A stretch of DNA of 63,450 bases, filler included, from Reclinomonas americana ATCC 50394 (taxonomy: Eukaryota), in NCBI GenBank assembly GCA_048213135.1. It is 10 parts of 10 records of this genome, joined end to end, with 100 filler letters (N's around TTAATTAATTAA, not from the genome) between each part and the next. Parts side by side here need not be neighbours in the genome. Positions count along the whole stretch, not along the records: positions 1 to 9,448 come from AFZH01016806.1; 9 more parts are not named here. The stretch is one strand, 5' to 3'. The notes under the pieces are model-generated. The model made no database searches. It was not told the origin of the DNA and worked only from the letters and a program-made list of their open reading frames with translations. Below are positions 1 to 47,135 of this stretch, piece after piece (within the stretch, counting starts at the first letter, position 1; every line of letters starts with the position of its first letter). Both the position numbers and the translations under genes were made by a program.

Positions 1-3000
1 ATGAGACGTAAGTTTTGCCGCTTGTCTTGCAGGGCTCGCAAGCGCGTAGCATTGCTTATCGGCAACTCTTGCGATGGCGAGGGAACGCATGGGTTACTGA
101 GAAACCCACCGCGTGATGTGGGTACGTCGATGCATACTTCGGCACGCAACTCCCGTTCACCGTCGGGTTTGGTCTCTCACACACGCACACGCAGACGAGT
201 TGCAACCAGTGCTTGCGGACTACGGCTTCCACGTTTGCTCGCATGTCGATGTGGTTGGCGATCGCATGCACTCCGTAGTTAAGAGATTTGTGGGCGAGTT
301 CGTGAATGAGGAGTGCGAATGTGTGCTGTTTTTTTTCTCTGGTCACGGTCTGGCGATTGAACGAGACTTGTTGCTCCTCCCAAGTGATGCCAACCGCATT
401 TTTGAATCACGCGTGGTGAGGTTGGCGGTCGCTTTGTTGTTTCGCGGAAGTTGTATTTACAACTGCAATCGCAGACAAATGGCGACAAATCACTGGCGCT
501 TCTCCGGTTCTGCATGCCGGAACTGTGCAACAATCGATCAGAGCATACGGTTGTGATTATGTTGGCGAACTGTTGCCGCTCAACTAACAGGTGCGTGTGG
601 TTTGATACATTGAAGCGTTTATTGTCGCAATTGTGTTAAATCACGCGGTCATTGTGTGCTCGGTCACAGCGCTGTTCGCTCGGTAACCAGAGACGATGTG
701 GAGAAGAATGTATTTGCTGGTTTAGCATGCTACCACGGTTGCGGAGCGCACGAGGGTGGTGAGTTATTGGCCTACTTTGCTTATCTGCAGGTTGCTGACT
801 TCTCGTCTCAGACTTGCAAGCATCTGCGTCTCCCTACGTGCGGGCGCTGGTTCACGCCATCAAGGGGCACGGGCATTTATCACTGCCTGCATGGCACGAC
901 AAAGTTAATTGTCGGCTGAGAGAAATGCAACAACAGTCTTTCGAACAAGACTCCGAATATCATCATGACCTAAAAGAAACCGAACTGGTTGAGTTTCGAC
1001 TGTGTTTGCATCCCGGTAAGCAGTTCGACCTCCTACGATCATGAGTGGAGTATTGTTGTATGTGCCGAAATCGCCGCTGCTCTTTTGCCTGTGAAGTATT
1101 GAGTTGTGTGCCTTTGGTGTTACTGCCGTTCGTAGTTCCCTATGTATTATTAGCGACGGTTACGACTGCTTACTGTACTGTGCCGCAGGCGTACACGCGC
1201 TGTGTCTTCGGGAGCTCTCGTTCTACCAACACGACGAGAGTGTGCGCAAGGACATGCAGATGTATGTGCCACTGCTGTGCTCCCGTGATCGTGACGTCTC
1301 GTCGAGGGACAAGATGACGGATCTGTTGTCGGAGGTGGATGCTTTCCTCTCCGAAACCAACACCACGCAACGTGTGTTGGTGCTGCTTGGCAACAGTGGA
1401 GCCGGCAAGACCACCACCATGTCGGTGCTGGCCGAGCGAGCCTGGCGACAGTGGCAAACGAGAGAGAGTCGTCGAGTGCCTGTGCGGGTGCCTCTCGGTG
1501 CGCTGCGCAATGCGGATGAGCGACTGTTGGAGGAGGCATTAGAACGCCTGTCGCACAAGTTACGATTGAAGCCGGATGTGCGAAAATTGAAGGAGGAGCC
1601 TCTCCTGTTGTTGCTTGACGGGTACGACGAGTTGTACCGTGGTGGAAATCTGTTTGTGACGAACCAGCTGGATGTGTGTCGCGATGTGAAGGTGATAATC
1701 ACTTGTCGCAGCGATTACGCACTGACGGCACTGGGTGGAGTGACGCAGTATCGACGGTACTTTGCACCGGTGGATGCAAGCGGTCAGTTGTGCATGCAGC
1801 AGCTGATGGAGCGGCACATTGCACCATTCAATATGGAGCAGATCGAGGAGTACTTCAAGCGACTGGTGCAAGTGGGTGGTGACGATGATGATGATGGTGA
1901 AGTGCGATGGTCAACTTCCGAGCAGTACATTCGTGCATTGAAGAGTGTGCATGGACTGGATGCATTGGTGTCGAATCCATTCCTACTGGCAGTGGTGGCT
2001 CGTGTGTTGCCTCAGTTGGTGGCGAGTGGTGCACAGCGACCTACTCGGCGTGATGTATTTGATCGATTTATTCGACAGTGGATTGTGAGGGAGCAGGAGA
2101 GGCAGACGCGTCTCGGTGCAGAGCGTGTGCCGAGTGAGGAGACGTGTCTGGCATTCTGTGAGGGACTTGCTCGCTTGATGCATGAGAGGAATGTGGTGCG
2201 TGTGACTGTGACGGAGAGTCGGTCAGGGGAGGAGGATGACTTTGGCGGTGCGCCACTCGCCTTGCGACGAGTGGAGGAGGGACCGTTTGACAAGTTCCTC
2301 GGCCCCAAGAACCAGCATGTGCGAGCGTGCTGTCCGATTGTGCGACGGTATGCGACGACGCAGTGGGGATATGTGCACCTGTCGTTGCTGGAGCACTGTG
2401 TGGCACGTCATGTGTTTGCATGGGAGACGTGGGATGAGGAGAGGAGGTTGACGATGCAAGATGTGCAGCAGCATGTGCTGGCAGTGCGACTGCTAAATGA
2501 TCGACCATCGCTGGTGGAGCAGATGGCCGAGGTGGTGCGACGGTCTCCTGCACTGCCAGCGAGACTGTGGGAGGTGATTTATATGTCACGGGAGATGGAT
2601 GAGGTGCGATTGGTGACGGCAGCCGCCAATGCAGCAACGGTGTTGTGTGTGGCGCAAGTGTCGTTCAGTGGGCGAGACCTGTCGGGAGTGCGAGTGAGGG
2701 GTGCGGATTTGAGGGATGCGGTGATGCACAGGACGGATTGGAGGGGAGCAGATTTGCGAGGGGTGAATATGTGCATGGCGTATGCGAGGGAGGCGGATTT
2801 CAGGGATGCGGATGTGACGGATGTGAAGTGGCCGAGGAGACCGATGGTGGGGCACACTGATCAGGTGAGATCTGTTGCTGTTACTCCCGACAGTCAGTAC
2901 ATTGTGAGTGGCAGTGGGGACAAGACTTTGCGAGTGTGGTCGGTGGCAAGTGGCGAGGGGGTGCGTCGACTGGAAGGCCATACGATAGCGGTGTCTGCAG

Positions 3001-4877
3001 TGGCAGTTACTACTGATGGCCAGCACGTTGTGAGTGGTAGTTGGGACAATACTGTACGGGTATGGTCGGTGGCAAGTGGCGAGGAGGTGCGCCGACTGGA
3101 AGGCCACACATTGATGGTAAACTCTGTCGCCGTAGTTCCGGATGGAGTGCACATTGTGAGTGGCAGCGCTGACAAGACCGTGCGAATGTGGTCGGTGGCA
3201 AGTGGCGAGGAGGTGCGCCGACTGGAAGGCCACACGAGTTGGGTGTTTGCAGTGGCGGTGGCACCCGATAGCCAGCACATTGTGAGTGGCAGTCATGACA
3301 ACACTGTACGGGTGTGGTCGCTAGCGAGTGGCGAGGAGGTGCGCCGACTGGAAGGCCACACGGAGTTGGTGTCTGCAGTGGCAGTAACACCCGATGGCCA
3401 GTGCATTGTAAGTGGCAGTTGGGACAAGACTGTGCGCGTGTGGTCACTGGTGAATGGAGATGAAGTGCGACGGTTCGTGGGACACACTGCCGCTGTCAAC
3501 ACTGTCGCCGTCACTCCTGATGGGCAGCGCGTCGTCAGCGGGAGTGGGGACTCGACTGCGCGAGTGTGGTCACTTGCGAGTGGCGGAGAGGTGCGACGGT
3601 TGGAGGGACACACTGGTCCGTTGCATTCAATCAAGGTGACTCCTGACGGTCAGCATATCGTGAGTGGGAGTGCAGATATGACAATACGAATGTGGCCTGT
3701 GATAGGTTATGAAGAAGTACGACGGTTGGGTGGACACAACGGATTGGTGCATTCAGTCATGCTCACCCACGATTGTCAGCATGTCTTGAGTGCCGGTGAT
3801 GACGGCACGGTGAGGATGTGGTCTGTGTCGACAGGCGAGGAACTGTGGAAGGTGGCAGGACAGTCCTCCGCATTTTCTGTTTCTCCAGATGGTCAATTCG
3901 CTGTGAGTGGGAGTCGGGACGGGTCTATTTTAGTGTGGTCTTTGGTTCGTGGAGAAGAAATGAGACGATTTGAGGGACACAATGGTAGTGTAACGTGTGT
4001 TGCCGTCACTCCCGATGGTCAGTACATTGTCAGCGGAGGTTGGGACAAGACAGTGCGAGTGTGGTCATTGGTGAGTGGAGAAGAAGTGCGGCGGTTGGAA
4101 GGACACACAAGTTGGGTAGAATGTGTCGTTGCCACTCCTGATGGTCAGCGCATTGTGAGCGGAGGCGGGGACAAGACAGTGCGTGTGTGGTCATTGGCGG
4201 GTGGAAAAGAAGTGAGGCGGCTGCGGGGACATACTTCCGGTGTGCTTTCTGTCGTCGTCACTCCTGATGGTCAACATATAGTAAGTGCGAGTTATGACGA
4301 GACAGTGCGAGTGTGGTCACTTGCTAGCGGCGAGGAGGTGCGCCGACTGGAGGGACACACCGGCAGTGTGTTGTCAGTCGCCGTCACTCCCGATGGTCAG
4401 CACGTCGTAAGTGGGAGTTGGGACGAAACAGTGCGCGTGTGGTCACTGGCGAGTGGAGAGGAACTGTTACGACTGGGGGGACACACGGGTGCGGTGTGGG
4501 CTGTCGACGTCACTCCTGATGGCCAGTACATCGTGAGTCGCGGTGGTCACGGAGAAGTACGGATGTGGTCTCTGGCGTATGGGGAGGAAGTGCCTCTTGA
4601 TGAGCAGGCGGAACTCGTAAACCCGTCAACGGAACGTGTGACTTATCTTCGCTGCATGGCGTTCGACTCTGCGTACACCGCCCGTGTGTCCGGCAGGGCG
4701 ATCCAGCTGATGCGTCGAAACACTCGCAGGCTTGTGGAGCGTATTCTCGGCACCGTCTTGCCCGATTTCACCAATGCGCTTGGTGCTGCGGGTGGCGTCG
4801 GCCTACAGGAAGTGACCATCGAGGGGGACGGGGGTGACGAGGAGGATGAGGAGGACGAGACAGTCTTAGTGCGATGA
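1..4877 (+). CDS. NLR1: caspase-like (Peptidase C14)-NACHT-pentapeptide-WD40x14; 5' end possibly outside the window
   Basis: GT-AG introns 122-194, 416-474, 591-669, 759-811 and 1016-1188 join in frame: RVALLIGN..LRNPPRDV / DELQPVL..GF..VLFFFSGHG..LLLPSDA / ..VVIMLANCCRST / ..AHEG / DLQASASPYVRAL.. / GVHALCLRELSFYQH. The last exon (1189-4877) has Walker A GNSGAGKTT, Walker B LLLLDGYDE, VIITCR, NPFLL, pentapeptide repeats (GADLRDAVM..GADLRGVNM) and 14 WD40 repeats. Confidence 0.85.
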
Positions 4878-5348: not shown

Positions 5349-5427
<79 letters not shown>

Positions 5428-5697
5428 ATCATCTTTCTCTTGGAGAGAAGAAGCATTTGCTCTGAGAATCGTATGTTTGATCTCCGTCTCCCACTCCCCC
5501 TCTCACTCTCCCTCTCCCTCTCCCTCTCCCTCCCTCTCTCCCTCCCTCTCTCCCTCTCACCCCTTCCTCTCCCTCTCCCTCTCACCCCTCCCTCTCCCTC
5601 TCCCTCTCCCTCTCCCTCTCCCTCTCCCTCTCCCTCTCCCCCTCTCCCCTCTCCCTCTTCCCTCTCTCCCCTCACCCTCTCGTCCACCTCCTCGCAG

Positions 5698-7688
5698 TCG
5701 TGCATTCGTGTCCTCGAGCTCGCCGTCGATCACTGAGCCCCAAGGCGTCGGTACTGTTTCGTTTCGCGCTGGTGAGCGCAAGTGCGCTGCTCGTTCTTTC
5801 TCTATTTCTCTCGCCCTCATTCCTGCTGGCAGAGGATGTCGAGGAGCGCATCCGCGCCATTCGCCGCGCCACTCTGTGGCGAGTGGATCCCATCACGTCG
5901 GCGCGCAGCAAGACCACCGACATCACCACCACCACCTACATCGAGTTGGAGCAAGGCATGCAGTGGCCGGGCACCGATTCACCCGTTCTCTTTGTGCGCG
6001 ACTTTTACGACCGTCTCTACTCGACGTCGATTGGCCTTGGCGGCCTCGACCCCGCCCGCTCGCGACGAAAGCTCCACAAGTTCTACATTACGGGCACGCC
6101 GGGCATGTGAGTTACATGCTGCATATTCTCTCAGCATGCACACCCCACTCACAAAAGGATTCATTTGTGTAGCTCCAAATCGGCGTTCGGTATGTACGTG
6201 CTGTACCGTGCGCTGATGGCCGACAAGACGACCCTGCTGCGCCATGGCGACGTCAAGGCATACGAGCCACACCTCATAGCCGGCAACCGTGTGTGGAGGT
6301 CTGCGACCGAAGGACCACTGTCAGAGAAGCGACTCATCGACCTGTACCTGGTGGATGGTACAACTCCCAGCCTGTACGCGCCCGCGGAAGTCACCATGAC
6401 GCTCCTCATCAGCTCGCCCAACCGCCTCCTTTGGAAAGACTTTGTCAAGCGTGGCGCTATTCCTCTCTTCTTCCCCACGTATACTGTTGGAGAGTTGGAG
6501 TTGCTGCGACTGGTGGCGTTTCCCGACCAGAACCGTGAGGAAGTGTTGCAGCGGTATGTCAAGTGGGGTGGGTCGGCGCGCTCGGTGCTCGTCAACATCA
6601 GTCCGGAGGCCCAGCACAGCTTGGAGTCGACATTCAAGCGCTTCAAGCCGCACGATCTTCTCCGTGCTGTGGAGCTGGCCGAGGAGCGCGAGGACAACAG
6701 TGGTGCTGCCATCTCCCATCGCCTCGTGCATCTCATTGTCAATCGCACGGACTTTACGCTGGAGAGCGTGGACTTTGCCTCCTCCTATGTGGCGATGAAT
6801 CTGCTCGAGCTGTGGCGCAAGTCGAACGAGGTGGACGCCAAGCGCTTGCTTTCACGTCTGCATGCGTTGGGCTCGACGGCGTCGGTCATGTACGGCCGCG
6901 TGTTTGAGGAGTGCGCTCACATGGCGTAGGCTGCCGGCGCAGGTGAGTTGGAGCTGCCACCGAGTTGCTTTTTTTCCTTGTCGTTTATCGTGTTGTTCTT
7001 GCGCTCATTGCATCGATCGCCGTCGCAGATCCGACGCATCAGAGGTGGCTGCGAGCTCGTGTTTGAGGAGTTCGGTGGGGGCGCGCAGGTGACCTGTGTT
7101 GGAGCTGCCACCGAGTTGCGTTGTTTTCTTTGTCGTCATTCCTGTTGTTGTCGCAGCGCTCAATTCGTCCATCGCCGTCGCAGATCCGACGCATCAGAGG
7201 TGGCTGCGAGCTCGTGTTTGAGGAGTTCGGTGGGGGCGCGTAGGTGACCTGTGTTGGAGCTGCCATCGAGTTGCGATTTTTCCTTGTCATTTATCCTGTT
7301 GTTCTTGCGCTCATTGCATCGATCGCCGTCGCAGATCCGACGCATCACTATTCCGATGCGTCGGAGGTAGCTGCGAAGTCTGCAGAGTCCAAGGGCCGTC
7401 TGCTTTCCTGCATTTGACTGCATCATGCGCCACAGCACGAGCGGTGGTCTTCTTCTGGGCAACGTGACCGTCAACGACAAGCACGATATTATCGCGTTGT
7501 TGGGAAATGGCCGGCGCCAGTTGCATCCTGTTCGCGCGCTGGGCCACGAGGACGAGAAGATCGACTTCTACTGGGTGGTGCCAGCACACGTGTTTGATAG
7601 GATGCAAGAGCCTGGTGCCAACACCAATCCAAGGGTGGAGGAGGAGGCCTTGTTGCATCTAGTGCGGCAGTTTGTGTTGTGCATGTGA
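5698..7688 (+). pseudogene. Crinkler/RHS-like NTPase + restriction-endonuclease-fold effector, probably pseudogenised; 5' exon(s) unresolved
   Basis: Introns 5751-5832 and 6107-6172 give LFVRDFY...ITGTPGISKS (Walker A), YLVDG, LISSPN..WKDF, FPTYTVGEL, RYVKWGGSAR, SHRLVH, FASSYV, GRVFEECAH, then FPAFDCIM..GNVTVNDKH..FYWVVP. In-frame TAG stops at 6927-6929 and about 7368-7370, plus a duplicated intron/exon unit. Confidence 0.7.
6948..7347 (+). repeat. ~150-155 bp tandem repeat (about 2.6 copies) of an intron plus a 60-nt exon
   Basis: ttggagctgcca(c/t)cgagttgc recurs at 6948, 7099 and 7254; cgtcgcag|atccgacgcatca recurs three times. Confidence 0.9.
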
Positions 7689-9619: not shown

Positions 9620-10510
9620 GTGACAGAAGAGATACAGAAATTTGTGTATTTCTTAGCGTTTTTGTGTGCAAGTGTGAGAGCAAGTGAGTGTCAGGGAGAG
9701 GCAGCAGGTAAGAGAGTGCTCTGTGTGTCTACCTGTGTGATATAGGGAGAGAGTGCGAGAGAAAGAGAGAGAAGAAAGAAAGAGAGACTCTGATACAGAT
9801 ATTTGAGAGCGGATTTCTTCGCTTTTTTTGTGAGCAAGTGTGAGAGTGGCTGTCAGAGAGGCAACAGGTAAGAGAGTGCTCTGTGTATCTACCTGTGTGT
9901 GGCAGGGAGAGAGTGCGAGAGAGAGAATGAGAGAGAGAAAGAGAGACAAGATATTTGAGTGCGGATTTCTTTGCATACTTGTGCAAGGAGTGAGTGAGTG
10001 TCAGGGAGAGGCAGCAAGTAAGAGAGAGTGCTCTGTGTGTCTGCCTGTATGTGATAGAGAGAGAGAGAGAGTGCAAGAGAGAGAAGGAAAAAAAGAAAGC
10101 AAAGAAGAGAGATATTGAGTGCATAGTTTGTGTACTTTGTGCAAGTGAGAGAGAGTCAGGGAGAGGCAGCAAGGAAGAGAGTGCTCTGTGTGTCTACCTT
10201 GTGCGTGACAGGGAGAGAGTGCGAGAGAGAGAAAGAAAGAAGAAAAAAAGAAAGACTGACTCAAATACAGATATTTGAGCGTGGATTTCTTTGCATACTT
10301 GTGAGCAAGTGTGAGAGTGGCTGTCAGAGAGGCACAGGAAAGAGAGAGTGTTCTGTGTGTGTGACAGGAAGAGAGTGCAAGAGAGAGAAGGAAAGAAAGA
10401 AGAAAGAAACAAGGAAAATGAAATAGGCAGATGCAGATGAGTGTGTATTTCTGTGTACAGTTGAGAGAGGCAACAGGAATGAGAGAGCTCTGTGTGCCTA
10501 TCTGTGTGCG
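9620..10510. repeat. Degenerate tandem repeat / low-complexity region
   Basis: Recurrent gatatttgag..cggatttct..gtgagcaagtgtgagagtggctgtcagagaggc..gtaagagagtgctctgtgt blocks separated by (GA)n. Confidence 0.8.
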
Positions 10511-21515: not shown

Positions 21516-24500
21516 TCAGGAGGCGCACATCAGACTTGCAAACCCTCGCAAACGCGCACGCGGTCGCAACTTCACCCCCCGCACATCGGTAAAATCGCAC
21601 TCTACGGTGCCGAGGATGCGCTCCACCAACCCACGAGTGCCTCGCCGCACCAGATGGATGGAGCTCCCGGCCACACGGGCAGTGTAGGCGGCGCCAAACG
21701 CCAATAGCCCAAAAGCAGTCACGCGATCCACCGCCGGGTCCACGAGATCCGCCTGCTCGTCAAGCGGCACTGGTTCTCCACTCGCCAGTGACCACACTCG
21801 CACGGAGTTGTTCTCACCTCCACTCACAACGTGCCGGCCGTCGGGAGTGATGGCGAGAGACCGCACCGCGCCATCGTTTTCCGCCAGCACTCTCACCTCC
21901 TCACCGCTGACGAGTGACCACACCCGCACTGTCTCGTCCTCGTCACTGCCACTCACAATGTGCTGACCGTCGGGAGTGACTGCAAGATATCGCACCTCAT
22001 CAATGTGCCCCTCCAACTGCCACACCTCCTCACCACTGGCCACAGACCACACTCGCACTGTGTCGGCATCGCTTCCGCTCACAATGAACTGGCCGTCGGG
22101 AGTGATGGTAAGAGACCGCACCGCAGCAGTGTGTCCCTCTAACCGTCGCACCTCCTCTCCACTCGCCACAGACCACACATGCACAATTCCATACCATTCT
22201 CCACTCACAACGAACAGCCCGTCGGGAGTGATGGCGACAGAGAGCACAAACGAATCGTGAACAAACCGTCGCACCTCCTCTCCTCGCGACAGTGACCACA
22301 CCCGCACAGTCTCATCAAGACTCCCAGTCACAACAAGCTGACCATCAGCAGAGATAATGACTGGCTTCACACGTTCATCGTGACCCTCCAACCGTCGAAT
22401 TTCATTCCCATTCGCCACAGACAACACACGCACCGGTCCGTCTCTACTGCCACACACAAGAGATTGGCCGTCAGCTGAAAAAGCGAACGAAGCGGGTGAC
22501 TTTGGCTGTCTCTCCAGCATCCACAGCTCCTCACCAGTTGTCGCGGACCACACTCGCAGTGTCTTGTCATCGCTGCCACTCACAACATGCTGATCGTCGC
22601 GAGTGAGCGCAACGTAACGCACAGTGTCGGTGTGTCCCTTGAATCGCCGCACCCCGTCTCCATTCACCAGCGACCACACACGCACTGTCCCGTCAGCACT
22701 GCCGCTCACAACGCACTGACCGTCGGGAGTAATGGCGACGGAGAGAACATCCCACACGTGTCCATACAACCGCCGAACTTCCTCACCAGTCGCCAGTGAC
22801 CACACTCTTACGGTGCAGTCCGCGCTCCCACTCGCGACGCACTGCCCATCGGGAGCGACAACGACACAGTTCACTGATCCAGTGTGGCCTTCCAATCGGC
22901 GCACTTCATCCCCACTCACCACGGACCACACACGCAGCGTACAGTCGCCGCCCCCACTCACAATATGCTGACCATCGGGAGTAACGGCAAATGTGCGCAC
23001 TGCACCGGTGTGCCCTCGAAACAGACGCACTTCTTCGCCACTCGCCGACGACAGCAGTCGCACAAAGCTATCCTCACCGCCAGTCACAATGTGCTGGCCA
23101 TCTGGCATTGTGAAGGGAGGTGGCATGTCAACGGCGTAATCCTCCAAACGTCTTACCTCTTCTCCACTCGCCAGTGACCACACGCGTGCGGTCAGGTCCT
23201 TACTCGTACTCACAACGTGCTCACCATCTGGAATGATGGCAACGGAAAAGACAGAGCCAGTGTGACCCACCATTCGCTGAACTTCCTCTCCACTCACGAG
23301 TGACCACACTCTCACTGTCATATCTCCACTCCCGCTCACAATGTGCTGACCATCGGTAGTGACAGCAACAGAATTCACCCATCCAGCATGGCCTACAATC
23401 GGCTCCCTCGGCCACTTCACACCGGTCACATCAGCATCCGTAAAGTCTGCCTCCTTCGCGTACGCCACGCACACATTCACCCCTCGCAAATCCGCTCCCC
23501 TCCACACTGTCCTGTGCATAACCACATCCCTCAAATCCGCACCCCTCACTCGCACACCAGACAGATCCCGCCCACTGAACGACACTTGTGCCACACACAA
23601 CACCGTCGCTGCATTCGCGGCGGCCGTCACCACTCGCCGAGTATCGACTTCTCTCGACAGCTCAATCACCTCCCACAGCCTCGCCTGCAATCGAGGAGAC
23701 CGTCGCACCACCTCGGCCATCTGCTCCACCAACGACGGTCTGTCGTTCAGCAGTCGCACAGCCAACACATGCTGCTGCACATCCTGCACCGTCAACCTCC
23801 TCTCCTCGTCCCAGGTCTCCCACGCAAACACATGGCGTGCCACACAATGCTCCAGCAACGACAGATGTACGAATCCCCACTGCGTCGTTCCATACCGTCC
23901 CACAATCGGACAACACACTCGCACATGCTGATTCTTCTCGCCCAGGAACTTGTCAAACGGCCCCTCCTCTACTCGTCGCAAGGCGAGTGGCGCACCACCA
24001 AAGTCATCCTCCACTGACCGACTCTCCGACACAGACACACGCACCACATTCCTCTCATGCATCAATCGTGCCAGTCCCTCACAGAACGAGAGACACGTCT
24101 CCTCAGTCGGCACACGCTCCGCACCGAGACGCGTCTGCCTCTCCTGCTCCCTCACGATCCACTGTCGAATGAATCGGTCAAATACATCACACCGAGTCGG
24201 TCGCTGCACACCACTCGCCACCAACTGCGGCAACACTCGAGCGACCACAGCCAACAGGAACGGATTTGACACCAGTGCGTCCAATCCGTGCACACTCTTC
24301 AGTGCACGAATGTACTCCTCGGCAGTCGACCATCGCACTTCACCATCACAATCATCACCACCCACTTGCACCAGTCGCTCAAAGTACTCCTCAATTTGCT
24401 CCTTGCTGAATGGTGCAATGTGTCGCTCCATCAGCTGCTGCATGCACAGCTGTCCGCGTGCATCCACCGGCGCAAAGTACTTTCGGCACTCCCTGGCTCC

Positions 24501-26404
24501 TCCCAGAGCCGTCAACGCGTAATCGTCACGACAGGTGATAATCACTTTCAAGTCGCGACACACATCCAGCTGGTTCTTGACAAACAGATTCACACCACGA
24601 TACAACTCGTCGTACCCGTCAAGCAACAACAACAGTGGTTCCTCCTTCAATCGTCGCACATCCGACTCGCTGAATCCTAACTCAGGTGACAGTCGCTCCA
24701 ATGCCTCCTCCAACAGTCGCTCATCCGCATTGCGCAGGGCACCAAGAGGCACACGCACAGGCACACGCCGACTCTCTCTCGTCTGCCACTGTCGCCATGC
24801 TCTCTCGGACAGCACCGACATGGTGGTGGTCTTGCCGGCACCACTGTTGCCGAACAGCACCAGCACACGCTGGGTGGTATTGGCGTCGGCGAGGAATGCA
24901 TCCACCTCCGCCATCAGATCCGTCATCTTGTCTCTCGATGAGACGTCACGATCACGCAAGCACAGCAGCGGCACATACATCTGCATGTCCTTGTGCATAC
25001 TCTCATCGTGCTGGTAGAACGAGAGCTCACGCACAGCCAGTCGGTGCAGTCGCTCCTCGAATGTGCTGATAATGTGCTGGACGTGACGCGCCTCGCGGAT
25101 ACGAGCAGCGGATCGAGATCGCTCATCATCGGTCAAATGCAGCCGTGAGAGGATGGAGAGGAAGACACCACCGTCACCAAGGTACTCCTGCACAGAGGCA
25201 TCCGTCACCATGAGGTCCTTGTGCGCCAAACCCTTTCTCACATCATTCAGCTCCTCTACCGCATTCCGTTCATCAACATCGTCAATCAGCAGCAGCTTGC
25301 GACCGTCACCAAGAACGAGGCCACCATACAGCATGATGGAAGTGAGTGCCGTCGTATCGAAACCGTCACACGGGGGATCGGACGAGGGGTCGGCGTCGAA
25401 TGTAGCACGCCAGGCCAACATCACCGGCTGCTTCTCCTCAAACAACTTGACTCGCCCAGGATGAAGCGGGGCATGTCGATCACGCCACGCCTTCACAGCC
25501 GCTGCGTCCATGCCAGCGGGCGCGAAACCCGCAACCCATGCCCGCACATCAAAGTCGGCATGATCGCGACTGAACTGGGCCAGTGCGCGTTGACAGCGCA
25601 GACGCACGGCCTCCTCCACCACCTCGAAAGCCATGGTGATGCGATTGAAATTGATCATGCTGTCCACCAGCACACAGAAGCATCAATCAGAATAACAAGC
25701 GGAGGAGAGAGAGAGAGAGAGAGATGAGGGCAAGATAAATCAAACCGAGCCACAAACTCCGAGTTGCTGTGTGACGACAAGAGTGAGATGCATGTTGGGC
25801 GAAGAGAGATGGATCCAACACATCACCACACCAGAGAGGGAAGGGTAGAGTAAGCTCGGCTGTGACCACATGAAGAGCACGAAGAGCACAACGGCAACAC
25901 ATGTGCAACAGACACAAGGAGAGAGTGTGTGTGCGAGAGAGATGAAGATGTACACCAACGCACAAGTACACACGCACACTGGACAGACCTTCCACTCTCG
26001 CTTCCACTCTCACTCCCACTCCCTCCACTTGACTGCAGCGCCACGCGAAGGTTCACACGGACGACGAGATGGGTGGATGCGTTGATGCCGAGTCCGATGA
26101 GCGGCACGCCACCGGCAAACTCAATGTTGAAAGCACTCGGCTTCTCCACTCCCACAATCTCCATCGCCTCATCTCCACTCTTCTCACGCAGCAAGCGAGT
26201 GGCCTCGCGCAGCAAGTACGTGAGAGTGGACATCGGTGTCATTGCCTCCACCACCACCGACAGCGATGAATCATGCGCTGCGCTCACATTCAGAGAGAAC
26301 TGTGATACACACAAGGGCAGTGAGAGCACAGAAAGAGGAAACACAGAAGGAGGAGTGAGAGCACAAAGAGATGGAGGGAAGGGAGAGAATGCACTCACCG
26401 ACAT
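21516..26404 (-). CDS. NLR2: Ubl-HEPN-NACHT-pentapeptide-WD40x13 with a divergent WD40 array
   Basis: Exons 26404-26399 (MS), 26299-25989 (Ubl-like + SGSESG linker) and 25659-21516. Motifs FDTTALTSIMLY, VRKGLAH, GNSGAGKTT and LLDGYDE; the reading frame is intact. Confidence 0.88.
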
Positions 26405-26744: not shown

Positions 26745-28113
26745 TAGTCACCAGCCTCCTCCGCCGTACAGCACCGCATCTCCATCTCCGCCAAACACCA
26801 CCTGTCCTCCTCCTGTACCACCCACATCGCCGCCCTCGCCCACCGCACCTCCTCCGCCATATAACACCGCAGACACCGTACTCCCCAACTCCTTCACCCT
26901 CCTACAACACCTGCCCCGCCACCACGCATCTGTGCACCACCACCTGCGCCTCCTCTGCCAGAAAACACCGCATCACCATCTCCACCAAACATCGCACTTC
27001 CCCTTCGTCTGTGCACCACCACCTGCGCCTCCTCTGCCAGAAAACACCGCACCACCATCTCCACCAAACACCGCACTTCCCCTTCCCCTTCTCCTGCCTA
27101 CAACACCTGCCCCGCCACCAAACATCTGTGCACCATCACTGATGAAGGCAAGGTGGTGCTGCAAGTCAAGGGACACCGCGGCTACGTGTCGTGTGTGGCC
27201 GTCACTCGCGACGGGCGGTACATTGTCAGCGGCAGTGGCGACAAGACGGTGCGGGTGTGGTCGATGGCGACGGGTGAGGAGGTGTGTCGACTGGTGGGTC
27301 ACACGGGTGGTGTGGTGGGGTGGCGGTGACGCACGACGGGCAGCGCGTGGTGAGTGGCAGCACCGATGGCACGGTGCGTGTGTGGTCCACGGTGTATGCG
27401 CTGACGTGCGGGGTGCTAGAGTGGGCGAAGATGGCGCAGAGGGTGTTGCGCGGGATGGTGCAAGAGGGTGAGGTGGAAGTGCGGTGTTTGGTGGAGATGG
27501 TGGTGCGGTGCCTTCTGGAAGTGGAGGCGCAGGTGAGCGACCACACACGAATCGTCGCATCACAACCCGAGCCCGTCACCACATGCAGACCGTCGGTGGT
27601 GACGGCCACTGACGTCACTGGCCAGTGATTCCCGATCAGCAGCAGCTGTTCCTCTTGCCCGCTGTCCAGCGAGAACACATGCACAGAGCGATCCTCTCCC
27701 GCACTCACAATCACCTGCCGATGCGCGGTGACGGACGCCGAGCGCACCTGCCGCGTGCATCGCAGCTTGACGTGCCACACCTGCTCGCCACTCGCCAGCG
27801 ACCACACACGCACAGTGCCGTCTGCGCCACCACCGCTCACCAGGTGCTGGCCGTCGGGGGGTGAAGGCGATGGATGACACGGGTCCTCCACTTGACTTGA
27901 TCTCTCGCACACACTGCTCCTCCTCTGCAGGTGGGAGTGACCACACGCGCATGGTGGCGTCATTGCTGCCGCTCGCAATGTGGTGGCCGTCGGGGCTGAC
28001 GGCGACGCAGGAAGGCGAGCGGTGGGGGAGGGAGTGCACGAGGGCGCCGGTGGAGAGGGTGTGTATGAGCACGGCGGTGGAGGTGATGGTGATGATAGGA
28101 GAGGATGAGGCAA
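26745..28113 (-). pseudogene. WD40-only partner gene remnant with an internal 401-bp inversion, frameshifts and duplicated C-terminal motif
   Basis: Minus-strand WD40 repeats at 28072-27537, a plus-strand WD40 + C-terminal segment at 27136-27536, then minus-strand MVHRCLVAGQVL*. Extra copies of RCLVEMV.RCFLAEEAQVVVHR at about 26900-27080. Homologous to 40623-41738. Confidence 0.8.
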
Positions 28114-28343
28114 GGTGAAAGTTGTCCTGTCAAGTGTTTTGTTTTTTTGTCACTCAGCAGATGTGAGTGGCATCGAGAAAGACAAATGCACCTGGTCTTG
28201 TCTGCCTTTGAATCGGTAATGTAGATGTTACTGTTCTGCTGCTGCGAGTTCTTTCAAAAAAGGAAACGCAAACGTCTCGACGCCGTTGCACTTGCAACAG
28301 ATCGCATGCGAAGCCAGTAACATGCGCAGCCAACCGTACAGGT

Positions 28344-28610: not shown

Positions 28611-31600
28611 TCATCGAACTATGACTCTTTCGTCCTCCTCATCCTGTTTGTCGCCCCCGACCCCCTCGTAGGTCACTTCTTCAAGGCCGACGCCACGCAC
28701 AGCACCAATCGCGTCGGTGAAATCGGGCAATACTGTGCCGAGAATATGTTCCACCAGCCCGCGAGTGTTTAGACGCATCAGAAAGATCCTCTTGCCGGAC
28801 ACACGGGCGGTGTACGCAGAACCGAACGCCATGCAGCGAAGATAAGTCACACGACCCGCCGAAGGCTCAACGAGGTCCGCCTGCTCATCAAGAGGCACTC
28901 CTTCTCCAGTCGACAGAGACCACACTCGAACTTCTCCGTGACCACCGCGACTCACGATGTACTGACCATCGGGAGTGACTTCAACACACCACACCCCACC
29001 CGTGTGGCCTTCCAATCGCAGCAGTTCCTCTCCACTCATCAGTGACCACACTCGCACTGTCTCGTCCCCACTCCCGCTCACAACATGCTGACCATCGGGA
29101 GTGACGGCGACAGAAAACACACTGTCAGTGTGTCCCTCCAGTCGAAGCAGTTCCTCGTCACTGGCCAGTGACCACACTCGCACTCTGTTGTCAAAACTCC
29201 CGCTAACGATTTGCTGACCATCAGGAGTGACGACGACAGAACACACACTGTTAGTGTGTCCCTGCAGTCGCCGCACTTGCTCTCCACTCACCAACGACCA
29301 CACGCGCACTGTCACGTCACCGCCACCGCTCACAATGTGCTGACCATCAGGAGTGACGACAACACATGTCACCCACAAAGTGTGACCTTCCAACCGCCGC
29401 AACTCTTCTCCACTCACCAACGACCACACGCGCACAGTCTCGTCACGGCCCCCGCTGATAATGCACTGACCATTGGGAGTGACGGCAACACACGATACAT
29501 AACCATTGTGCCCCTCAAATCGTCGCATTTCTTCTCCACTCGCCAAAGACCACACCAGAATAGACCCGTTCCGACTCCCACTCACAGCGAATTGACCATC
29601 TGGAGAAACAGTAAATGCGGAGGACATTCCTCCCACCTTCCACAGTTCCTCGCCTGTTGACACAGACCACATCCTCACCGTGCCGTCATTACCGGCACTC
29701 ACAGCATGCTGACAATCGTGGGTGAGCACAACTGAATGCACCGATCCGGTGTGTCCACCCAACCGTCGCACTCCTTCATCACCTATCACAGGCCACAATC
29801 GTACTGTCATATCCTCACTCCCACTCACGATATTCCGACCATCAGGAGTAATCTTGATTGAACGCAGTGGACCAGTATGTCCCTCCAACCGCCGCAACTC
29901 CTCGCCACTCGTCAGTGACCAAATTCGCGCAGTCGAATCCCCACTCCCGCTGACGACGTGCTGCCCATCAGGAGTGACGGCGACAGCATTCGCCCAGCCA
30001 GTGTGTCCCTCGAACCGTTGCACTTCCTCGCCACTTGCCAGCGACCACACTCGCACTGTCTTGTCATCACTCCCACTCACTACGTGCTGGCCATCGGGTG
30101 TTACTGCCACTGCACACACCCTCCACGTGTGGACTTCCAGTCGGCGCACTTCCTCGCCACTGGCAATCGACCACACTCGAACAGTCATGTCATCACCACC
30201 ACTCACAATGTGATTACCATCGGGTGTCACTGCCACCGCCCGCACCTCATTCGTGTGGCCTTCCAGTCGGCGCACCTCCTCACCACTTGACACCGACCAC
30301 AGTCGTACAGTCTTGTCCGCACTGCCACTCACAATGTGATTACCATCGGGTGTCACTGCCACCGCCCGCACCTCATTCGTGTGGCCTTCCAGTCGGCGCA
30401 CCTCCTCACCACTTGACACCGACCACACCCGTACAGTCTTGTCCGCACTGCCACTTACGATGTATTGGCCATCAGCTGTCACTGTCACCGCGTACACCCA
30501 ACCGGTGTGACCTTCCAGTCGCAGCACCTCCTCTCCACTTGCCAGTGACCACACCCGTACAGTCTTGTCGTCACTGCCACTCACAATGTGCTGACCATCG
30601 GGCGTAATAGTGACAGATCTCACACAATCAGTGTGTCCTACAAACGGTCTCCTTGGCCACTTCACGCCCGTCACATTCGCTTCTCGGAAATCCGCCTCCC
30701 TCGCATACGCCATGCACACATTTACCCCTCGCAAATCCGCTCCCCTCCACACCGTTCTGTGCATCACCGCATCCCTCAAATCCGCACCTTTCACTCGCAC
30801 ATCCGACAGATCTCGCCCACTGAATGACACTTGCGCTACACATAACGCCGTCGCCGCATTCGCTGCTGCCGTCACCACTCGCTCCTCATCCACTTCTCGT
30901 GACAACTCGATCACCTCCCAAAGCCTCGCTTGCAGTCGGGGAGACCGTCGAACCACCTCGGCCATCTGCTCCACCAACGACGGTCGATCATTTAGCAGCC
31001 GCACTCCCAACACATGCTGCTGCACATCTTCCATCGTCAATCTCCTCACCATAGCCCACGTCTCCCACGCGAACACATGACGTGCCACACAGTGCTCCAG
31101 CAACGACAGATGCACGAATCCCCACTGCGTCGTCCCATACCGTCGCACAATCGGACAGCACACTCGTACGTGCTGATTCTTGGGACCGAGGAACTTGTCA
31201 AGCGGTCCCTCTTCCACGCGTCGCAAGGCGAGTGGCGCACCACCAAAACCATCATCTTCCTCCTCACCAGACCGATTCTCCATCACAGACACACGCACCA
31301 TATTCCACTCATGCATCAACCTTGCCAGTCCCTCACAGAATGCCAGACACGTCTCCTCACTCGGCACACGCTCCGCACCAAGACGCGTCTGTCTCTCCTG
31401 CTCCCTCACAATCCACAGTCGAATGAATCGGTCAAATACATCGCACCGAGTCGGTCGCTGCACTCCACTCGCCACCAACTGCGGCAACACACGAGCCACC
31501 ACTGAGAGCATGAACGGATTCGACACCAATGCGTCCAGTCCATGCACACTCCTCAGTGCATGTATGTAATCAGCAACAGTCGACCAGCGCATTTCGTCAT

Positions 31601-33447
31601 CGTCACCCACTTGCACCAGTCGCTCAAAGTACTCCTCAATCTGCTCCTTGTTGAATGGTGCAATGTGTCGCTCCATCAGCTGCTGCATGCACAGCTGTCC
31701 GCGTGCATCCACCGGTGCAAAGTACCGTCGATACTGTGTCACACCACCCAATGCCGTCAGTGCGTAATCGCCGCGACAGGTGATAATCACTTTCAAGTCG
31801 CGACACACATCCAGCTGATTCTTGACAAATAGATTCACACCGCGGTACAACTCGTCGTACCCGTCAAGCAACAACAGCAGTGGCTCCTCCTTCAACCGTC
31901 GCACATCTGTCTCACTGAATCCCAATTCAGGTGACAGTCGCTCCAGCGCCTCCTCCAACAATCGCTCATCGGCATTGCGCAGAGCACCAAGAGGCACACG
32001 CACAGGCACTCGTCTGCTTTCTCTCGTCTGCCACTGTTGCCATGCTCGCTCGGCCAGTACTGACATGGTGATGGTCTTGCCGGCTCCACTGTTGCCAAAC
32101 AGCACCAGGACACGCTGGGTGGTGTTGGTGTCGGAGAGGAAGGCATCCACCTCCGTCAACAGATCAGTCATCTTGTCACTCGATGAGACGTCACGATCAC
32201 GTGTGCACATCAGTGGCACATACATCTGCATGTCCTTGCGCACACTCTCATCATGCTGGTAAAACGGGAGCTCACGCACAGCCAGTCGATGCAGTCGCTC
32301 CTCAAACGTGTCCACAATGTGCCGAGCGTGAAGTGCCTCACAGATACGAGCAGAGAATCGAGCTTGCTCCTCAGCCGTCAACTGCAGTCGGGAGAGGATG
32401 GAGAGGAAGACACCACTGTCACCAAGGTACTCCTGCACAGTGACGTCTGACAGTACGAGGTCCTTGTGCGCCAACGCCTTTCTCACATCGTTGAGATCCT
32501 CCACCGCCTGTCGTTCATCAGTATCGGCAATCAGCAGCAGCTTGCGACCGTCATCCTCGACAAAGCCACCATACAGCATGATGGTGTGCAGAGCCGTCGT
32601 ATCAAAACCGTCACACGGAGGGTCGGACGAGGGATCGGCATCGAATGCAACACGCCAGGATAACATCACCGGCTGCTTCTCCTCGAACAACTTGACTCGA
32701 GAAGGGTGGAGTGGAGCATGTCGCTCACGCCATGCCTTCACAGCCACCGCATTCATGCCAGCAGGCGTGAAACTCGGCACCCAGGCCCGCACATCAAAGT
32801 CGGGATGATCGCGACTGAACTGCGCCAGTGCGCGTTGACAGCGCAGACGCACGGCCTCCTCCACCACCTCAAAGGCCATGTTGATGCGCTGCGAGTTGAT
32901 CATGCTGCCCGTGCACACACATAACACAGTCAGCACAGACTCACTCCGAGTGAAATAACAAGGAAAGGGAGAGAGAGAGTACGGTGCCGAAACAAACCGA
33001 GTCGCTCGCTCCGAGTTGCTGTGGGAAGACATGAGAGTGAGATGCATGTTTTGCACAGGGGATGACACATCCAGCACACATACCTTCCACTCCCACTCCC
33101 ACTCACTCCACTCGACTGCAGCGCCACGACAAGTGTCAGACGGACGACAAGATGCGTGGATGAGTTGATTCCTAGAATGCGCAGCGGAATGCCACCACCC
33201 TCCTCGATATCGAATGCCATCGGCTTCTCCACTCCCACAATCTCCATCTCCCCATCTCCACTCTTCTCACGCAGCAAGCGTGTGGCCTCGCGCAGCAGGT
33301 CCGCAAGAGTGGACATCGCCGACATGCCCCGCCACCACCAGCGATGAATCATGCGCCGCACTTACATTCACAGAGAACTGCGAAAGGAGGACAGTGAGCA
33401 CACACACAGAAGGAGGGAAGAGTCAGCACCCAAACACACACCGACAT
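28611..33447 (-). CDS. NLR3: (Ubl, frameshifted)-HEPN-NACHT-pentapeptide-WD40x14
   Basis: Exons 33447-33442, 33377-33084 and 32904-28611. A net 5-nt deletion near 33330-33345 shifts the Ubl exon; re-initiation at ATG 33325 (MSAMSTLADLL) or ATG 32903 would be in frame. VRKALAH, GNSGAGKTIT and LLDGYDE are intact. Confidence 0.82.
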
Positions 33448-40044: not shown

Positions 40045-40380
40045 TGGCCACCACACTGTTGGCGAAGTGGTTTCCCGCATAGGACACCTTTGTTTTCTCT
40101 CTTGTTGCACTCTTGCTCTCTCGCCTCTTTACTAATCTACTGACCGCAATACACGTGCCTCCAACTGCACAGCTTAACTCTTCAGACACCACTCGGACCA
40201 GCGCAGCGAAGTCGTTCCCGAGCAGGACAACTTGTTCTCTCCATCCCTCCTTGCATCTGATCTTGCATCTCTCAAGCATCCCAACTTTCCTCAAGTACTA
40301 GAGTCACAAGCTGCGCACTTGTGTGACCACCACACCGTCGGCGAAGTCGTTCCCGCACAGGACATTTTTCTTCTCTCTCT
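40045..40380 (+). promoter_or_regulatory. Repeated upstream motif of the WD40-only genes (3 copies here, 1 at about 48027-48095)
   Basis: ggcgaagt(c/g)gtt(t)cccg..(c/t)aggaca..t..ttctctc at about 40081, 40207, 40340 and 48055. Confidence 0.55.
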
Positions 40381-40622
40381 TTGCCCACCCTTCTCTCTCC
40401 CTTGCTCTCTTCTCTCCTTCCATTGCTCACTCCTTCCCTCCTTCCCTCTCTCCTCTCTCTCTTCTCTCTCTCCTCTCTCTTTGCCCACTGTTCTCTATCC
40501 CTTTGCGCTGCCTTCTCTCCTTCCATTACTCACCTTTTCTCTCATCCCTTCCCTCTCTCCCTTTCCCCTCCCATCCCTCCTTCCTTCTTCTCTCACTTCT
40601 CCTCTCCCTTTCCCTCTTCCCC

Positions 40623-41738
40623 ATGACCTCCTTCCCCAAACTCCACGGCCACAAACTCCACGGCCACATCCGTCCCGTCACCTCCGTCCTCATCACCCCC
40701 GACGGCCTCCACATCATCAGCTCCAGCACCTCCGACATCTCCATCCGCATCTGGTCACTGGCCACCGGCGAACCACTGCACCACCTCACTCACCCCTCCA
40801 TGCACGACCTTGTCTGCATCGCCGTCACCCCCGACAGTCGACACATTGTCAGCGCAGGCTACCAGACACTGCGAGTGTGGTCAGTGGCCACGGGAGAGCA
40901 TCTGCACGAGGCACACATGGGACGCATGGGAGTACAATGTATGGTGGTGGCTCCCGACGGACAGCATGTGGTGCTGGGAGGACTGGGATCGGCGCATGTG
41001 TGGTCACTGCAGCAGGTGGCCACGACAGTGGAGCGCGTGGCGAGTTACACGGGAGTGGCTCACCGCGTGGTCATCACTCCCGACAGCAAGTACGTGCTCA
41101 CTGGCGGCTTGGACTGCCCATCGGTGACTGCGTGGCAGCTGCGCAGTGGGTGCGTGGTGCGATATTACGCGGCGCATAGTGGCGTGTCGTGCTTGACGGT
41201 GACGCCCGACGGGAGGCACGTGATTGTCGGGTGTCGCGACAAGACGATCCGGGTGTGCGAGTTGGAGAGTGGGCGCGAGGTGCGACGGTTGGAGAAGCAC
41301 GCGCAGATGCAGCTGCTGTTGAGTGTGGTGGTGGCGCCCAGTGGTCTGCATGTGGTTGGCGGCAGTGATGATGGGGTCGTGTCGGTGTGGTCGCTGGCCA
41401 GCGGCAAGGAGCTGCGGCGGTGGAAGGGACTCGGCTACTTTCACCCGGCGTCGGTAGCGGTCGCGCCCGGCGGCCAGTACGTGGTGTGCGCGGGGCGACA
41501 GGAGTCGGTGGAGGTGTTGTCGACGCCTCTCGCGTTGGCGCAAGGGGAGTTGCGGTGGGCGACCGCGGCGGTGCGGGCGGTGCGGGAGGAAGTAGACAAG
41601 GAGAAGGAGGAGATGGAGGAGGAGGTGAAGGAGGAGGAGGAGAGGCGGTGCTTGGTGGAGATTGTGTTAAGGTGTTTTATCGCGGAAGAGGCGCAGTTGG
41701 TGGCGCACAAGTGTGTGAGGGAGCAGATGATGTTGTAG
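40623..41738 (+). CDS. WD40-only partner A (about 7 WD repeats + acidic helical C-terminal tail), intronless, 371 aa
   Basis: MTSFPKLHGHKLHGHIRPVTSVLITPDG..., seven TPDG/WS-type repeats, tail ELRWATAAVRAV..EEERRCLVEIVLRCFIAEEAQLVAHKCVREQMML*. Confidence 0.85.
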   Translation: MTSFPKLHGHKLHGHIRPVTSVLITPDGLHIISSSTSDISIRIWSLATGEPLHHLTHPSMHDLVCIAVTPDSRHIVSAGYQTLRVWSVATGEHLHEAHMGRMGVQCMVVAPDGQHVVLGGLGSAHVWSLQQVATTVERVASYTGVAHRVVITPDSKYVLTGGLDCPSVTAWQLRSGCVVRYYAAHSGVSCLTVTPDGRHVIVGCRDKTIRVCELESGREVRRLEKHAQMQLLLSVVVAPSGLHVVGGSDDGVVSVWSLASGKELRRWKGLGYFHPASVAVAPGGQYVVCAGRQESVEVLSTPLALAQGELRWATAAVRAVREEVDKEKEEMEEEVKEEEERRCLVEIVLRCFIAEEAQLVAHKCVREQMML

Positions 41739-45200: not shown

Positions 45201-47135
45201 AGTGGCGCGGAGGTGCGCCGACTGGAAGGCCACACGAGTGCGGTATCTGCAGTGGCAGTGACACCCGATGGCCAGCACATTGTGAGCGGCGGGGGAGACA
45301 AGACTGTACGGGTGTGGTCGGTGGCAAGTGGCGAGGAGGTGCGCCGACTGGCAGGCCACACGGATTGGGTGCGGGCAGTGGCAGTTACACCCGACGGTCA
45401 GTACATCGTGAGTGGCAGTGATGACGAGACTGTGCGGGTGTGGTCACTGGCAAGTGGCGAGGAGGTGCGCCGACTGGAAGGCCACACGGAGTGGGTGCGT
45501 GCAGTGGCATTTACACCCGATGGCCAGCACATTGTGAGTGGCAGTAGGGACAAGACTGTACGGGTGTGGTCGGTGGCAAGTGGAGAGGAGGTGCGCCGAC
45601 TGGAAGGTCACACGGATGAAATCCGTGCATTGGCATTTACACCCGCTGGCCAGCACATTGTGAGTGGCAGTTGGGACAAGACTGTGCGAGTGTGGTCAAT
45701 GGCGAGCGGAGATGAAGTGCGGCGGTTGGAGGGACACACTGGTGCAGTGCTCTCTGTCGCCGTCACTCCTGATGGGCAGCACGTCGTCAGCGGGATTGGC
45801 GACTCGACTGCGCGAGTTTGGTCACTGGCGAGTGGCGAAGAGATGCGACGGTTGGAGGGACACACTGGTGATCTGCGTTCAATCAAGATTACTCCTGATG
45901 GTCAGTACGTCGTGAGTGGGGGTGAAGATATGACGGGTCGAATGTGGCCTGTGATTGGTGATGAAGATGTACGACGGTTGGGTGGGCACACCGGAGTGGT
46001 GCATTCAATTGTGCTCACTCACGACTGTCAGCATGTTGTGAGTGCCGGTGATGACGGCACGGTGAGGATGTGGTCTGTGTCAACAGGCGAGGAATTGTGG
46101 AAGGTGGCAGGACAGTTCTCCGCATTTGCTGTTTCTCCAGATGGTCAATTCGCGGTGAGTGGGGGTGAGAATGGGTCTATTCTGATGTGGTCTTTGGATC
46201 GTGGAGAAGAAGTGCGACGATTTGAGGGGCACAATGATCGTGTAACGTGTGTTGCCGTCAGTCCCGGTGGTCAGTACATTGTCAGCGGATGTTGGGACAA
46301 GACTGTACGTGTGTGGTTACTGGCGGGTGGAGATGAGTTGCGGCAGCTGCGGGGACACACTGAATGGGTGAGCTCTGTCGTCGTCACCCCCGATAGTCAG
46401 CACATTGTGAGCGGAGGTGGAGATAATACAGTTCGAGTGTGGTTACTGGCGAGTGGAGAAGAAGTGAGGCGGCTGCGGGGACACATTTTGTGGGTGAACT
46501 GTGTCGTCGTCACTCCTGATGGTCAACACATCGTCAGCGGGAGTTATGACAAGACAGTGCGAGTGTGGTCACTGGCCAGCGGCGAGGAGATGCACCGACT
46601 GGAGGGACACACTGCATGGGTGAACTCCGTCGTCGTCACTCCTAATGGTCAGCACATCGTAAGTGGGAGCTTTGACAAGACAGTGCGAGTGTGGTCACTG
46701 ACGAGTGGAGAGGAACTGCTTCGGCTGGAGAGACACTCTGGTGGGGTGCGGTGTGTCGTCATCACTCCCGATGGCCAGTACATCGTGAGTGGCAGTGGTC
46801 ACGGAGAAGTACGGGTGTGGTCTCTGGCGGATGGAGAGGAAGTGCCTCTTGATAAGCAGGCGGACCTCGTGGACCATTCGGCGGATCATGTGGCTTACCT
46901 TCGCTGCTTGGCGTTCGGTTCTGCGTACACTGCCCGTGTGTTTGGTAGGTCGATCCAACTGATGCGTCGAAACACTCACGGGCTTGTGGAACGTATTCTC
47001 GGCACCGTCTTGTCAGATTTCACTAACGCGCTTGGTGCTTTGAGTGGCGTCGGCCTTGAAGAGGTGACCGACGGGGTGGACGGGGGCGACGGAGAGGATG
47101 AGGAGGACGAAAGAGTCTCAGTTCGATACCGATGA
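42286..47135 (+). CDS. NLR4: Ubl-HEPN-NACHT-pentapeptide-WD40x14, intact
   Basis: Exons 42286-42291 (MS), 42360-42658 and 42839-47135; introns are GT-AG with a ctgac branch point at about 42811. HEPN RKALAH at 43260-43277; Walker A and B are intact. Confidence 0.9.

Follow-up and report, generated by a model that had tools for sequence, protein, structure and literature searches.

A putative caspase-like Peptidase_C14 head spliced onto a NACHT-pentapeptide-WD40 receptor in Reclinomonas americana

The closest described systems

The metacaspase-NACHT-WD40 architecture is widespread in bacteria, and in a cyanobacterial form of it the NACHT and WD40 parts are separated by a pentapeptide domain (Asplund-Samuelsson et al. 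2012, PMC3501461). The same four-part order is present in the gene described here, if its five introns are spliced as modelled. This gene, designated gene A, occupies positions 1-4877 (+ strand) of a 63,450-nucleotide stretch of DNA from Reclinomonas americana ATCC 50394 (assembly GCA_048213135.1), hereafter the window, which consists of 10 parts of 10 records joined end to end with filler; parts side by side in it need not be neighbours in the genome. The predicted product is an NLR with an N-terminal Peptidase_C14 (caspase-like) domain. Bacterial-type motifs (RVALxIGN, L.NP..D, GHG and a DxCR-like motif) were found in this C14 domain as well. Unlike the cyanobacterial type, gene A lies in a eukaryotic context, its protease part contains five spliceosomal-type introns, and one Asp of the S1 pocket is replaced by Asn.

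All-in-one forms are common in multicellular bacteria (Dyrka et al., PMC4986451). For fungal NLRs, the list of N-terminal domains in the available text of the same paper includes Peptidase S8 but not C14, and the effector lists seen in PMC4986451 and 10.1101/2022.03.16.484565 name S8 and CHAT, not Peptidase_C14. Fungal NLR-like proteins with an S8 or a caspase-related CHAT protease adjoin gasdermin genes, and their proteases have been proposed to cleave the gasdermins (Daskalov et al., 10.1101/2021.06.03.446900; PMC10197012). Gene A has in common with these HET-Q2-like protease NLRs that it is a eukaryotic NLR with the protease within the receptor and WD40 repeats at the C-terminal end. The fungal proteins carry S8 or CHAT, whereas the family matched in gene A was PF00656 (C14); they neighbour gasdermin genes, whereas none was seen downstream of gene A in a Pfam scan of the open reading frames (ORFs) between 4771 and 36806.

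In animals, a separate caspase is recruited via CARD or PYD adaptors, and Apaf-1 uses NB-ARC. The likeness of gene A to the Apaf-1 apoptosome and the NLR inflammasomes would be one of principle, in that oligomerisation of a STAND NTPase bearing C-terminal repeats leads to proximity activation of a protease of the caspase family. Unlike those systems, gene A is predicted to have its protease in one chain with the NTPase, which is of the NACHT type, and Pfam revealed no adaptor domain.

The novelty attributed to this architecture in a sequence-only reading of the same DNA, made earlier without database searches, was overstated, as the architecture is known in cyanobacteria (PMC3501461) and protease NLRs are known in fungi. 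No eukaryotic PF00656-NACHT fusion was found in the literature searched, which is weak evidence that none is in print; the supplementary tables of the fungal preprint lay outside that search and may list C14 cases. The available sections of PMC2246300 and PMC1325252 contain no protease-NACHT fusions.

Gene model and the Peptidase_C14 domain

Read without splicing, the left end of the window consists of short open fragments, followed by a long open frame between 1095 and 4877. The joined exons formed one 4440-nt frame of 1479 codons with a lone stop at its end, across five introns that are all GT...AG (73, 59, 79, 53 and 173 nt; phases 1, 0, 2, 1 and 1). The sequence-only reading had proposed that five GT-AG introns with consistent phases join the fragments in frame to the NACHT exon and that the last of them is in phase 1, and both points agree with this model. 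On balance, positions 1-4877 probably represent one spliced gene with short fungal-type introns, encoding an all-in-one C14-NACHT-pentapeptide-WD40 NLR of about 1479 residues that would be activated by proximity and would carry a swappable protease head. The exons and introns are as follows.

1-121, + strand: exon 1 as visible in the window; start of the C14 domain, with the RVALLIGN strand and the L.NP..D motif carrying the first S1-pocket Asp
122-194, + strand: intron 1, GTACGT...GCAG, 73 nt, phase 1
195-415, + strand: exon 2; core of the p20-like part, with the catalytic His in SGHG
416-474, + strand: intron 2, GTGAGG...GCAG, 59 nt, phase 0
475-590, + strand: exon 3; strand ending in N-C-C-R
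591-669, + strand: intron 3, GTGCGT...ACAG, 79 nt, phase 2; exact donor uncertain
670-758, + strand: exon 4; matches the ..S..pG..A.dG part of the relatives
759-811, + strand: intron 4, GTGAGT...TCAG with CTGAC upstream of the acceptor, 53 nt, phase 1
812-1015, + strand: exon 5; p10-like end of the C14 domain (SPYVRAL helix) and a linker of about 35 residues
1016-1188, + strand: intron 5, GTAAGC...GCAG, 173 nt, phase 1; junction of the protease module and the NLR core
1189-4877, + strand: exon 6; NACHT, pentapeptide and WD40 repeats and an acidic tail, with the stop TGA at 4875-4877

Translation may start from the ATG at 1-3. Bases 14-32, just before the first conserved C14 residues, form a pyrimidine-rich tract ending in CAG that resembles an acceptor, so the 5' end of the gene may lie outside the window and an upstream exon is possible. 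A 25-nt intron at 8-32 was rejected, as its removal would bring a stop into frame and the other five introns are all much longer.

The membership of the first five exons in Peptidase_C14 was examined in several ways. Exon 2 alone matched Pfam PF00656 with an E-value of 9.5e-8 over profile positions 29-101 of 233, and its 32.4 bits exceed the family cut-off of 21.4, in keeping with the family named in the sequence-only reading. A weak match was obtained with exon 5 alone (E 0.12, profile positions 178-223). At E-values up to 1, PF00656 was the only family reported for the protease exons, and neither CHAT nor S8 appeared. When exon 2 was searched with phmmer among 1.84 billion representative sequences, 14 proteins reached E <= 0.001, nine of which are Peptidase_C14 by Pfam, the remaining five being repeat or low-complexity proteins. 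The best E-value in the whole library was 1.5e-7, to a protein that is not C14, and the best C14 match had an E-value of 5.3e-6. In a language-model atlas, 29 of 30 matches of exon 2 fell in the Peptidase_C14 set. A PDB sequence search with exon 2 gave a chance match only (E 0.53), and neither a word-index search among longer proteins nor PADLOC returned any match for it.

A C14 profile was then built from domains cut from eight of the nine C14 relatives, with the window sequence excluded and P0023, a 157-residue fragment, omitted. The joined 255-residue N-terminus scored 96.2 bits on this profile (positions 3-201), against 4.1 bits for the best of 200 shuffled sequences, which upholds the proposal of a five-exon caspase-like module. 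Because the relatives had been found with exon 2, the score was also determined with each exon omitted in turn. Omission of exon 1 reduced it to 75.8 bits (a cost of 20.4), of exon 3 to 83.8 bits (12.4), of exon 4 to 83.3 bits (12.9) and of exon 5 to 84.1 bits (12.1); when exon 2 was dropped, the other four exons still gave 23.5 bits in colinear order. Therefore, all five exons hold colinear pieces of one C14 domain.

The same profile was used to score 44 in-frame, stop-free splice choices lying within 45 nt of each chosen site, the chosen ones included; 38 of them concern introns 1-4 and six concern intron 5. The chosen sites of intron 1 were the best of eight in-frame options, by 8.4 bits, and those of intron 2 the best of three. 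For intron 3, donors at 597, 600 and 624 scored 0.5-2.4 bits above the chosen 591, and for intron 4 the options 759-820 and 756-811 came within 0.7 bits of the chosen one. The six options of intron 5 could not be separated, since this intron lies beyond the C14 domain and the profile is blind to it.

In an alignment with the eight relatives, the RVALLIGN, L.NP..D and FFFSGHG motifs, the end of the strand with NCCR, and SPYVRAL all sit on conserved blocks. The His codon of SGHG is CAC at 344-346, and N-C-C-R is encoded by AAC-TGT-TGC-CGC at 568-579, with the Asn at 568-570 and the catalytic (second) Cys at 574-576, exactly where the sequence-only reading had placed the two catalytic residues. 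In the dyad columns, where all eight relatives have GHG and D(A/C)CR, gene A has the SGHG His and the second Cys of its NCCR motif, so that the reported retention of both residues stands; the p10-like end that it had described is likewise present, with SPYVRAL on its family block and exon 5 on the PF00656 positions given above. Also kept are the Gly after the His, the Arg after the Cys and the first pocket Asp (RDV versus NDA). The extra Cys of NCCR is a natural variant, because two relatives have D-C-C-R. By sequence, the protease head is of the orthocaspase or metacaspase-like Peptidase_C14 type.

Two acidic residues line the S1 pocket of C14 members other than caspases; the first is kept in gene A and the second, two residues before the catalytic Cys (Cys-minus-2), is replaced. 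The replacement of D by N reported earlier was found again, with Asn in gene A and Asp in all eight relatives. The Cys-minus-2 position is presumably that of Asp211 in TbMC2. The pocket of TbMC2 comprises Cys92, Asp95, Ser156/159 and Asp211, and its two Asp residues are important for basic P1 residues (PMC6426788, PMC4357240); both are highly conserved in orthocaspases, even in pseudo-orthocaspases (PMC6426788). In caspase-7, an active enzyme like other caspases, Cys-minus-2 is Gln184 (with Cys186 as the catalytic residue), which contacts P1 Asp (PMC4357240). An amide at this position is compatible with catalysis, since active caspases carry Gln there, and the Asn of gene A suggests that the P1 preference may have shifted from the strict Arg/Lys of the relatives.

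The same pocket bears on an alternative explanation, in which the fusion is real and the C14 domain is a pseudo-protease, or has strongly altered activity, and serves as an oligomerisation, recruitment or decoy module. The loss of an Asp that is important for basic P1 residues (PMC6426788) and present in all eight relatives would fit it, as would the divergence of the domain, exon 2 having its best library match in a protein that is not C14, and a review points out that an intact dyad is no proof of activity (PMC5756287). This explanation appears rather unlikely, however, as the dyad, the Gly after the His, the Arg after the Cys and the first pocket Asp are all kept, and active caspases have Gln at Cys-minus-2 (PMC4357240).

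The joint to the NLR core and the paralogs

The core encoded by exon 6 contains the following features.

1371-1859 (approximate), + strand: NACHT, PF05729, E 5.8e-9, 36.4 bits against a cut-off of 26.7
1389-1415, + strand: Walker A, GNSGAGKTT, intact as read from the sequence
1602-1631, + strand: Walker B, LLLLLDGYDE, intact as read from the sequence
2658-2762 (approximate), + strand: pentapeptide repeats, Pfam E 7.6e-8
2835-4613 (approximate), + strand: WD40 repeats, 14 stretches by Pfam

With PADLOC, the NACHT part yielded a weak mad8 match alone. At the DNA level, the WD40 repeats between 2883 and 4593 form tandem arrays with a period of 126 nt (and its multiples 252 and 378) and matches of 72-80%, a pattern that recalls fungal NACHT-WD proteins, whose WD repeats are highly similar.

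Four further copies of the NACHT part were found in the window by tblastn, with 86-89% protein identity. Three of these belong to full paralogs (B, C and D), whose cores are 86-88% identical to that of gene A. The pentapeptide repeats and the paralogs are additions to what had been noted earlier.

42840-47135, + strand: paralog B, intronless; a 202-residue N-domain followed by the NACHT-pentapeptide-WD40 core
21516-25658, - strand: paralog C, built like B
28611-32903, - strand: paralog D, built like B
50877-54182, + strand: paralog E, a 5'-truncated copy with homology from residue 136 of the NACHT query
42840-43445 (+ strand), 25053-25658 (- strand) and 32298-32903 (- strand): the 202-residue N-domains of B, C and D

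The window is an NLR cluster, and loose WD40 pieces were also seen at 26865-27326, 27226-28149, 40302-41738 and 47876-49372.

The ratio of non-synonymous to synonymous substitution rates (dN/dS) was 0.14-0.16 at a dS of 0.39-0.44 in the NACHT-pentapeptide region for all six pairs of the four full cores, as expected for a core under purifying selection. Since dN/dS is about 0.15 at a dS of about 0.4, the core of gene A has long been kept as coding sequence. The near-equal dS values suggest a burst of duplication or homogenisation among the four cores.

The frame of exon 6 opens after a stop at 1092 and contains no ATG before the one at 1254. Over the 15 codons before this ATG, gene A differs from B at four synonymous and no non-synonymous codons, from C at three synonymous and two non-synonymous codons, and from D at five and one, respectively; the non-synonymous codons are positions at which C or D alone departs from the other three. 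Because there is no in-frame ATG ahead of this conserved coding sequence, exon 6 needs an upstream exon.

A different arrangement, with two transcription units or a main isoform that retains intron 5, would give a protease ending at the TGA at 1045-1047 and a shortened NLR starting from the ATG at 1254. The frame of exon 5 does meet this stop if intron 5 is retained, an ORF at 799-1044 covers the exon 5 region in the unspliced reading, and the C14 profile is uninformative on the intron. Set against this, the 15 codons before ATG 1254 are conserved as protein, with mostly synonymous change and no start of their own; the gap between the two genes would be only about 200 nt; and intron 5 combines a good donor (GTAAGC) with a good, pyrimidine-rich acceptor (...GCAG) and restores the frame exactly. 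Retention of intron 5, which would leave a head-less NLR, is allowed by the sequence but fits the facts less well than splicing, and the arrangement as a whole is regarded as quite unlikely.

The DNA alignment located the joint itself. Gene A matches B, C and D from about 10 nt past the acceptor AG of intron 5 (1188), and the sequences upstream of that point are unrelated. The N-domain of the paralogs is 80-82% identical among the three, mostly helical, and unrelated to the C14 head. Among gene A and paralogs B-D, introns are confined to the caspase head. As homology starts at the joint, at least two different effector heads are combined with a single conserved core in the NLR family, swapped at or next to intron 5. 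The domain or exon shuffling suggested in the sequence-only reading, which may have run in either direction, is supported by B, C and D sharing the core while being intronless and carrying another N-domain. A stand-alone caspase donor gene was sought within the window by profile and by tblastn, and none was found beyond the gene itself: tblastn detected no second copy of the caspase part, and among 1641 six-frame fragments of the window the C14 profile had zero matches outside 1-1041.

No Pfam family was assigned to the N-domain of the paralogs, and it gave no match in the word-index protein search or in PADLOC. An AlphaFold model from the three-sequence alignment had a mean predicted local distance difference test score (pLDDT) of 41.9 and was unusable. 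Hints of HEPN came from a Pfam match to HEPN_Swt1 (E 0.091), from atlas rows in which 11-38% of members carry HEPN families, and from an R-x5-H motif conserved near the C-terminal end in the three sequences; a HEPN identity is a lead only.

The C14 exons might also be a decaying remnant whose open frame is left over, in a gene A that is turning into a pseudogene. The window offers no second copy of the module by which to gauge constraint, the support from codon usage is weak, and the NLR cluster in the window is rich in repeats and includes several WD40 and NACHT pieces that are truncated, as such decay would have it. The five exons are nevertheless free of stops and frameshifts, none of the ten splice-site dinucleotides is damaged, the catalytic residues have been preserved, and the attached core (dN/dS 0.15 at dS 0.4) has been long maintained, which makes a remnant very unlikely. 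From its sequence, the gene as modelled is real and probably functional.

Cleavage preference shifted away from Arg/Lys on the way to animal caspases, and the Cys-minus-2 residue of true caspases is Gln. With this in mind, we tentatively consider that an unrelated, possibly HEPN-like, head in the NLR cluster gave way to an intron-rich caspase-like module, with the intron serving as the joint, and that the pocket Asp was lost, perhaps moving the cleavage preference off Arg/Lys; such a history is possible, though doubtful. Two points are noteworthy and worth following, namely the clean junction, at an intron, where effector heads are exchanged, and the replacement of an S1-pocket Asp by Asn.

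Proposed mechanism, relatives and significance

If gene A is expressed as a single spliced receptor, the WD40 propellers would keep the protein closed until a ligand is met. NACHT would then bind nucleotide and oligomerise, and the oligomer would bring the N-terminal protease domains together and switch them on. The active protease might cleave a downstream executioner or the receptor itself, resulting in a cell-death or non-self-recognition response. Proximity activation through NACHT is a reasonable inference by analogy, with the cyanobacterial metacaspase-NACHT-(pentapeptide)-WD40 proteins (PMC3501461) and the fungal S8 or CHAT protease NLRs as precedents.

Several results weigh against the interpretation of gene A as one such spliced receptor. 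When searched singly, exons 1, 3 and 4 had zero Pfam matches at E-values up to 1. In a codon-usage test trained on the NLR cores, the proposed frame was preferred in five of five exons, with small margins that overlap the values for introns, and this test is too weak to count as support. The presumed adjacency of His and Cys in a caspase fold rests on the alignment. The Asn at Cys-minus-2, where all eight relatives have Asp, could mean reduced or changed activity, and the stop at 1045-1047 would leave a stand-alone protease if intron 5 were retained. As for a substrate, the Pfam scan covered 150 ORFs of at least 90 amino acids between 4771 and 36806; it assigned no family to 149 of them and identified the remaining one as a WD40 piece, so that no gasdermin-like gene was seen, although spliced genes would escape such a scan. 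A further 90 ORFs lie past 36806, outside it, and the DNA upstream of gene A is beyond the window.

The relatives of the NACHT region belong among the same results. Among 8000 candidates scored, nine proteins reached an E-value of 0.001; the nearest are NACHT-pentapeptide-WD40 proteins with 27-30% identity, and those that are named come from Mortierellomycotina fungi (27-29%). When prokaryotic genomes were searched with a NACHT-region profile, 21 loci with 21-31% identity were recovered. None of the nine relatives had a C14 domain by our own C14 profile, nor did any of the 21 loci within their flanks, and no cyanobacterial homologue was retrieved. The C14-NACHT fusion is thus without a confirmed orthologue among the nine NACHT relatives and the 21 prokaryotic loci.

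Ten of the 21 prokaryotic loci (28-31% identity) come from metagenome-assembled genomes labelled Mycoavidus cysteinexigens, an endosymbiont of Mortierella. Their identity is about the same as that to the Mortierellomycotina proteins, which would reflect either host DNA that ended up in these assemblies through binning or gene transfer between host and symbiont. Just downstream of gene A, at 5356-5681, 6947-7347 and 9683-10360, there are a perfect (GT)34 microsatellite, an array of TCTCCC repeated about 33 times, and two tandem arrays whose units measure 155 and 160 nt.

All-in-one receptors, in which sensor, switch and protease lie in one chain, are thought to be ancestral to the logic of the apoptosome and the inflammasome; the documented cases come mainly from bacteria and also from fungi, where the protease is of the CHAT or S8 type. 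A eukaryotic PF00656-type NLR with a clear swap point would be a simple system in which to follow the activation of a caspase-family protease by proximity in a NACHT oligomer, and gene A would also serve to probe the role of the Cys-minus-2 residue in P1 choice. Its family would show how NLR families trade effector heads and, if true, the replacement of a head at an intron joint would represent live exon shuffling that generates NLR effector diversity in a eukaryote.

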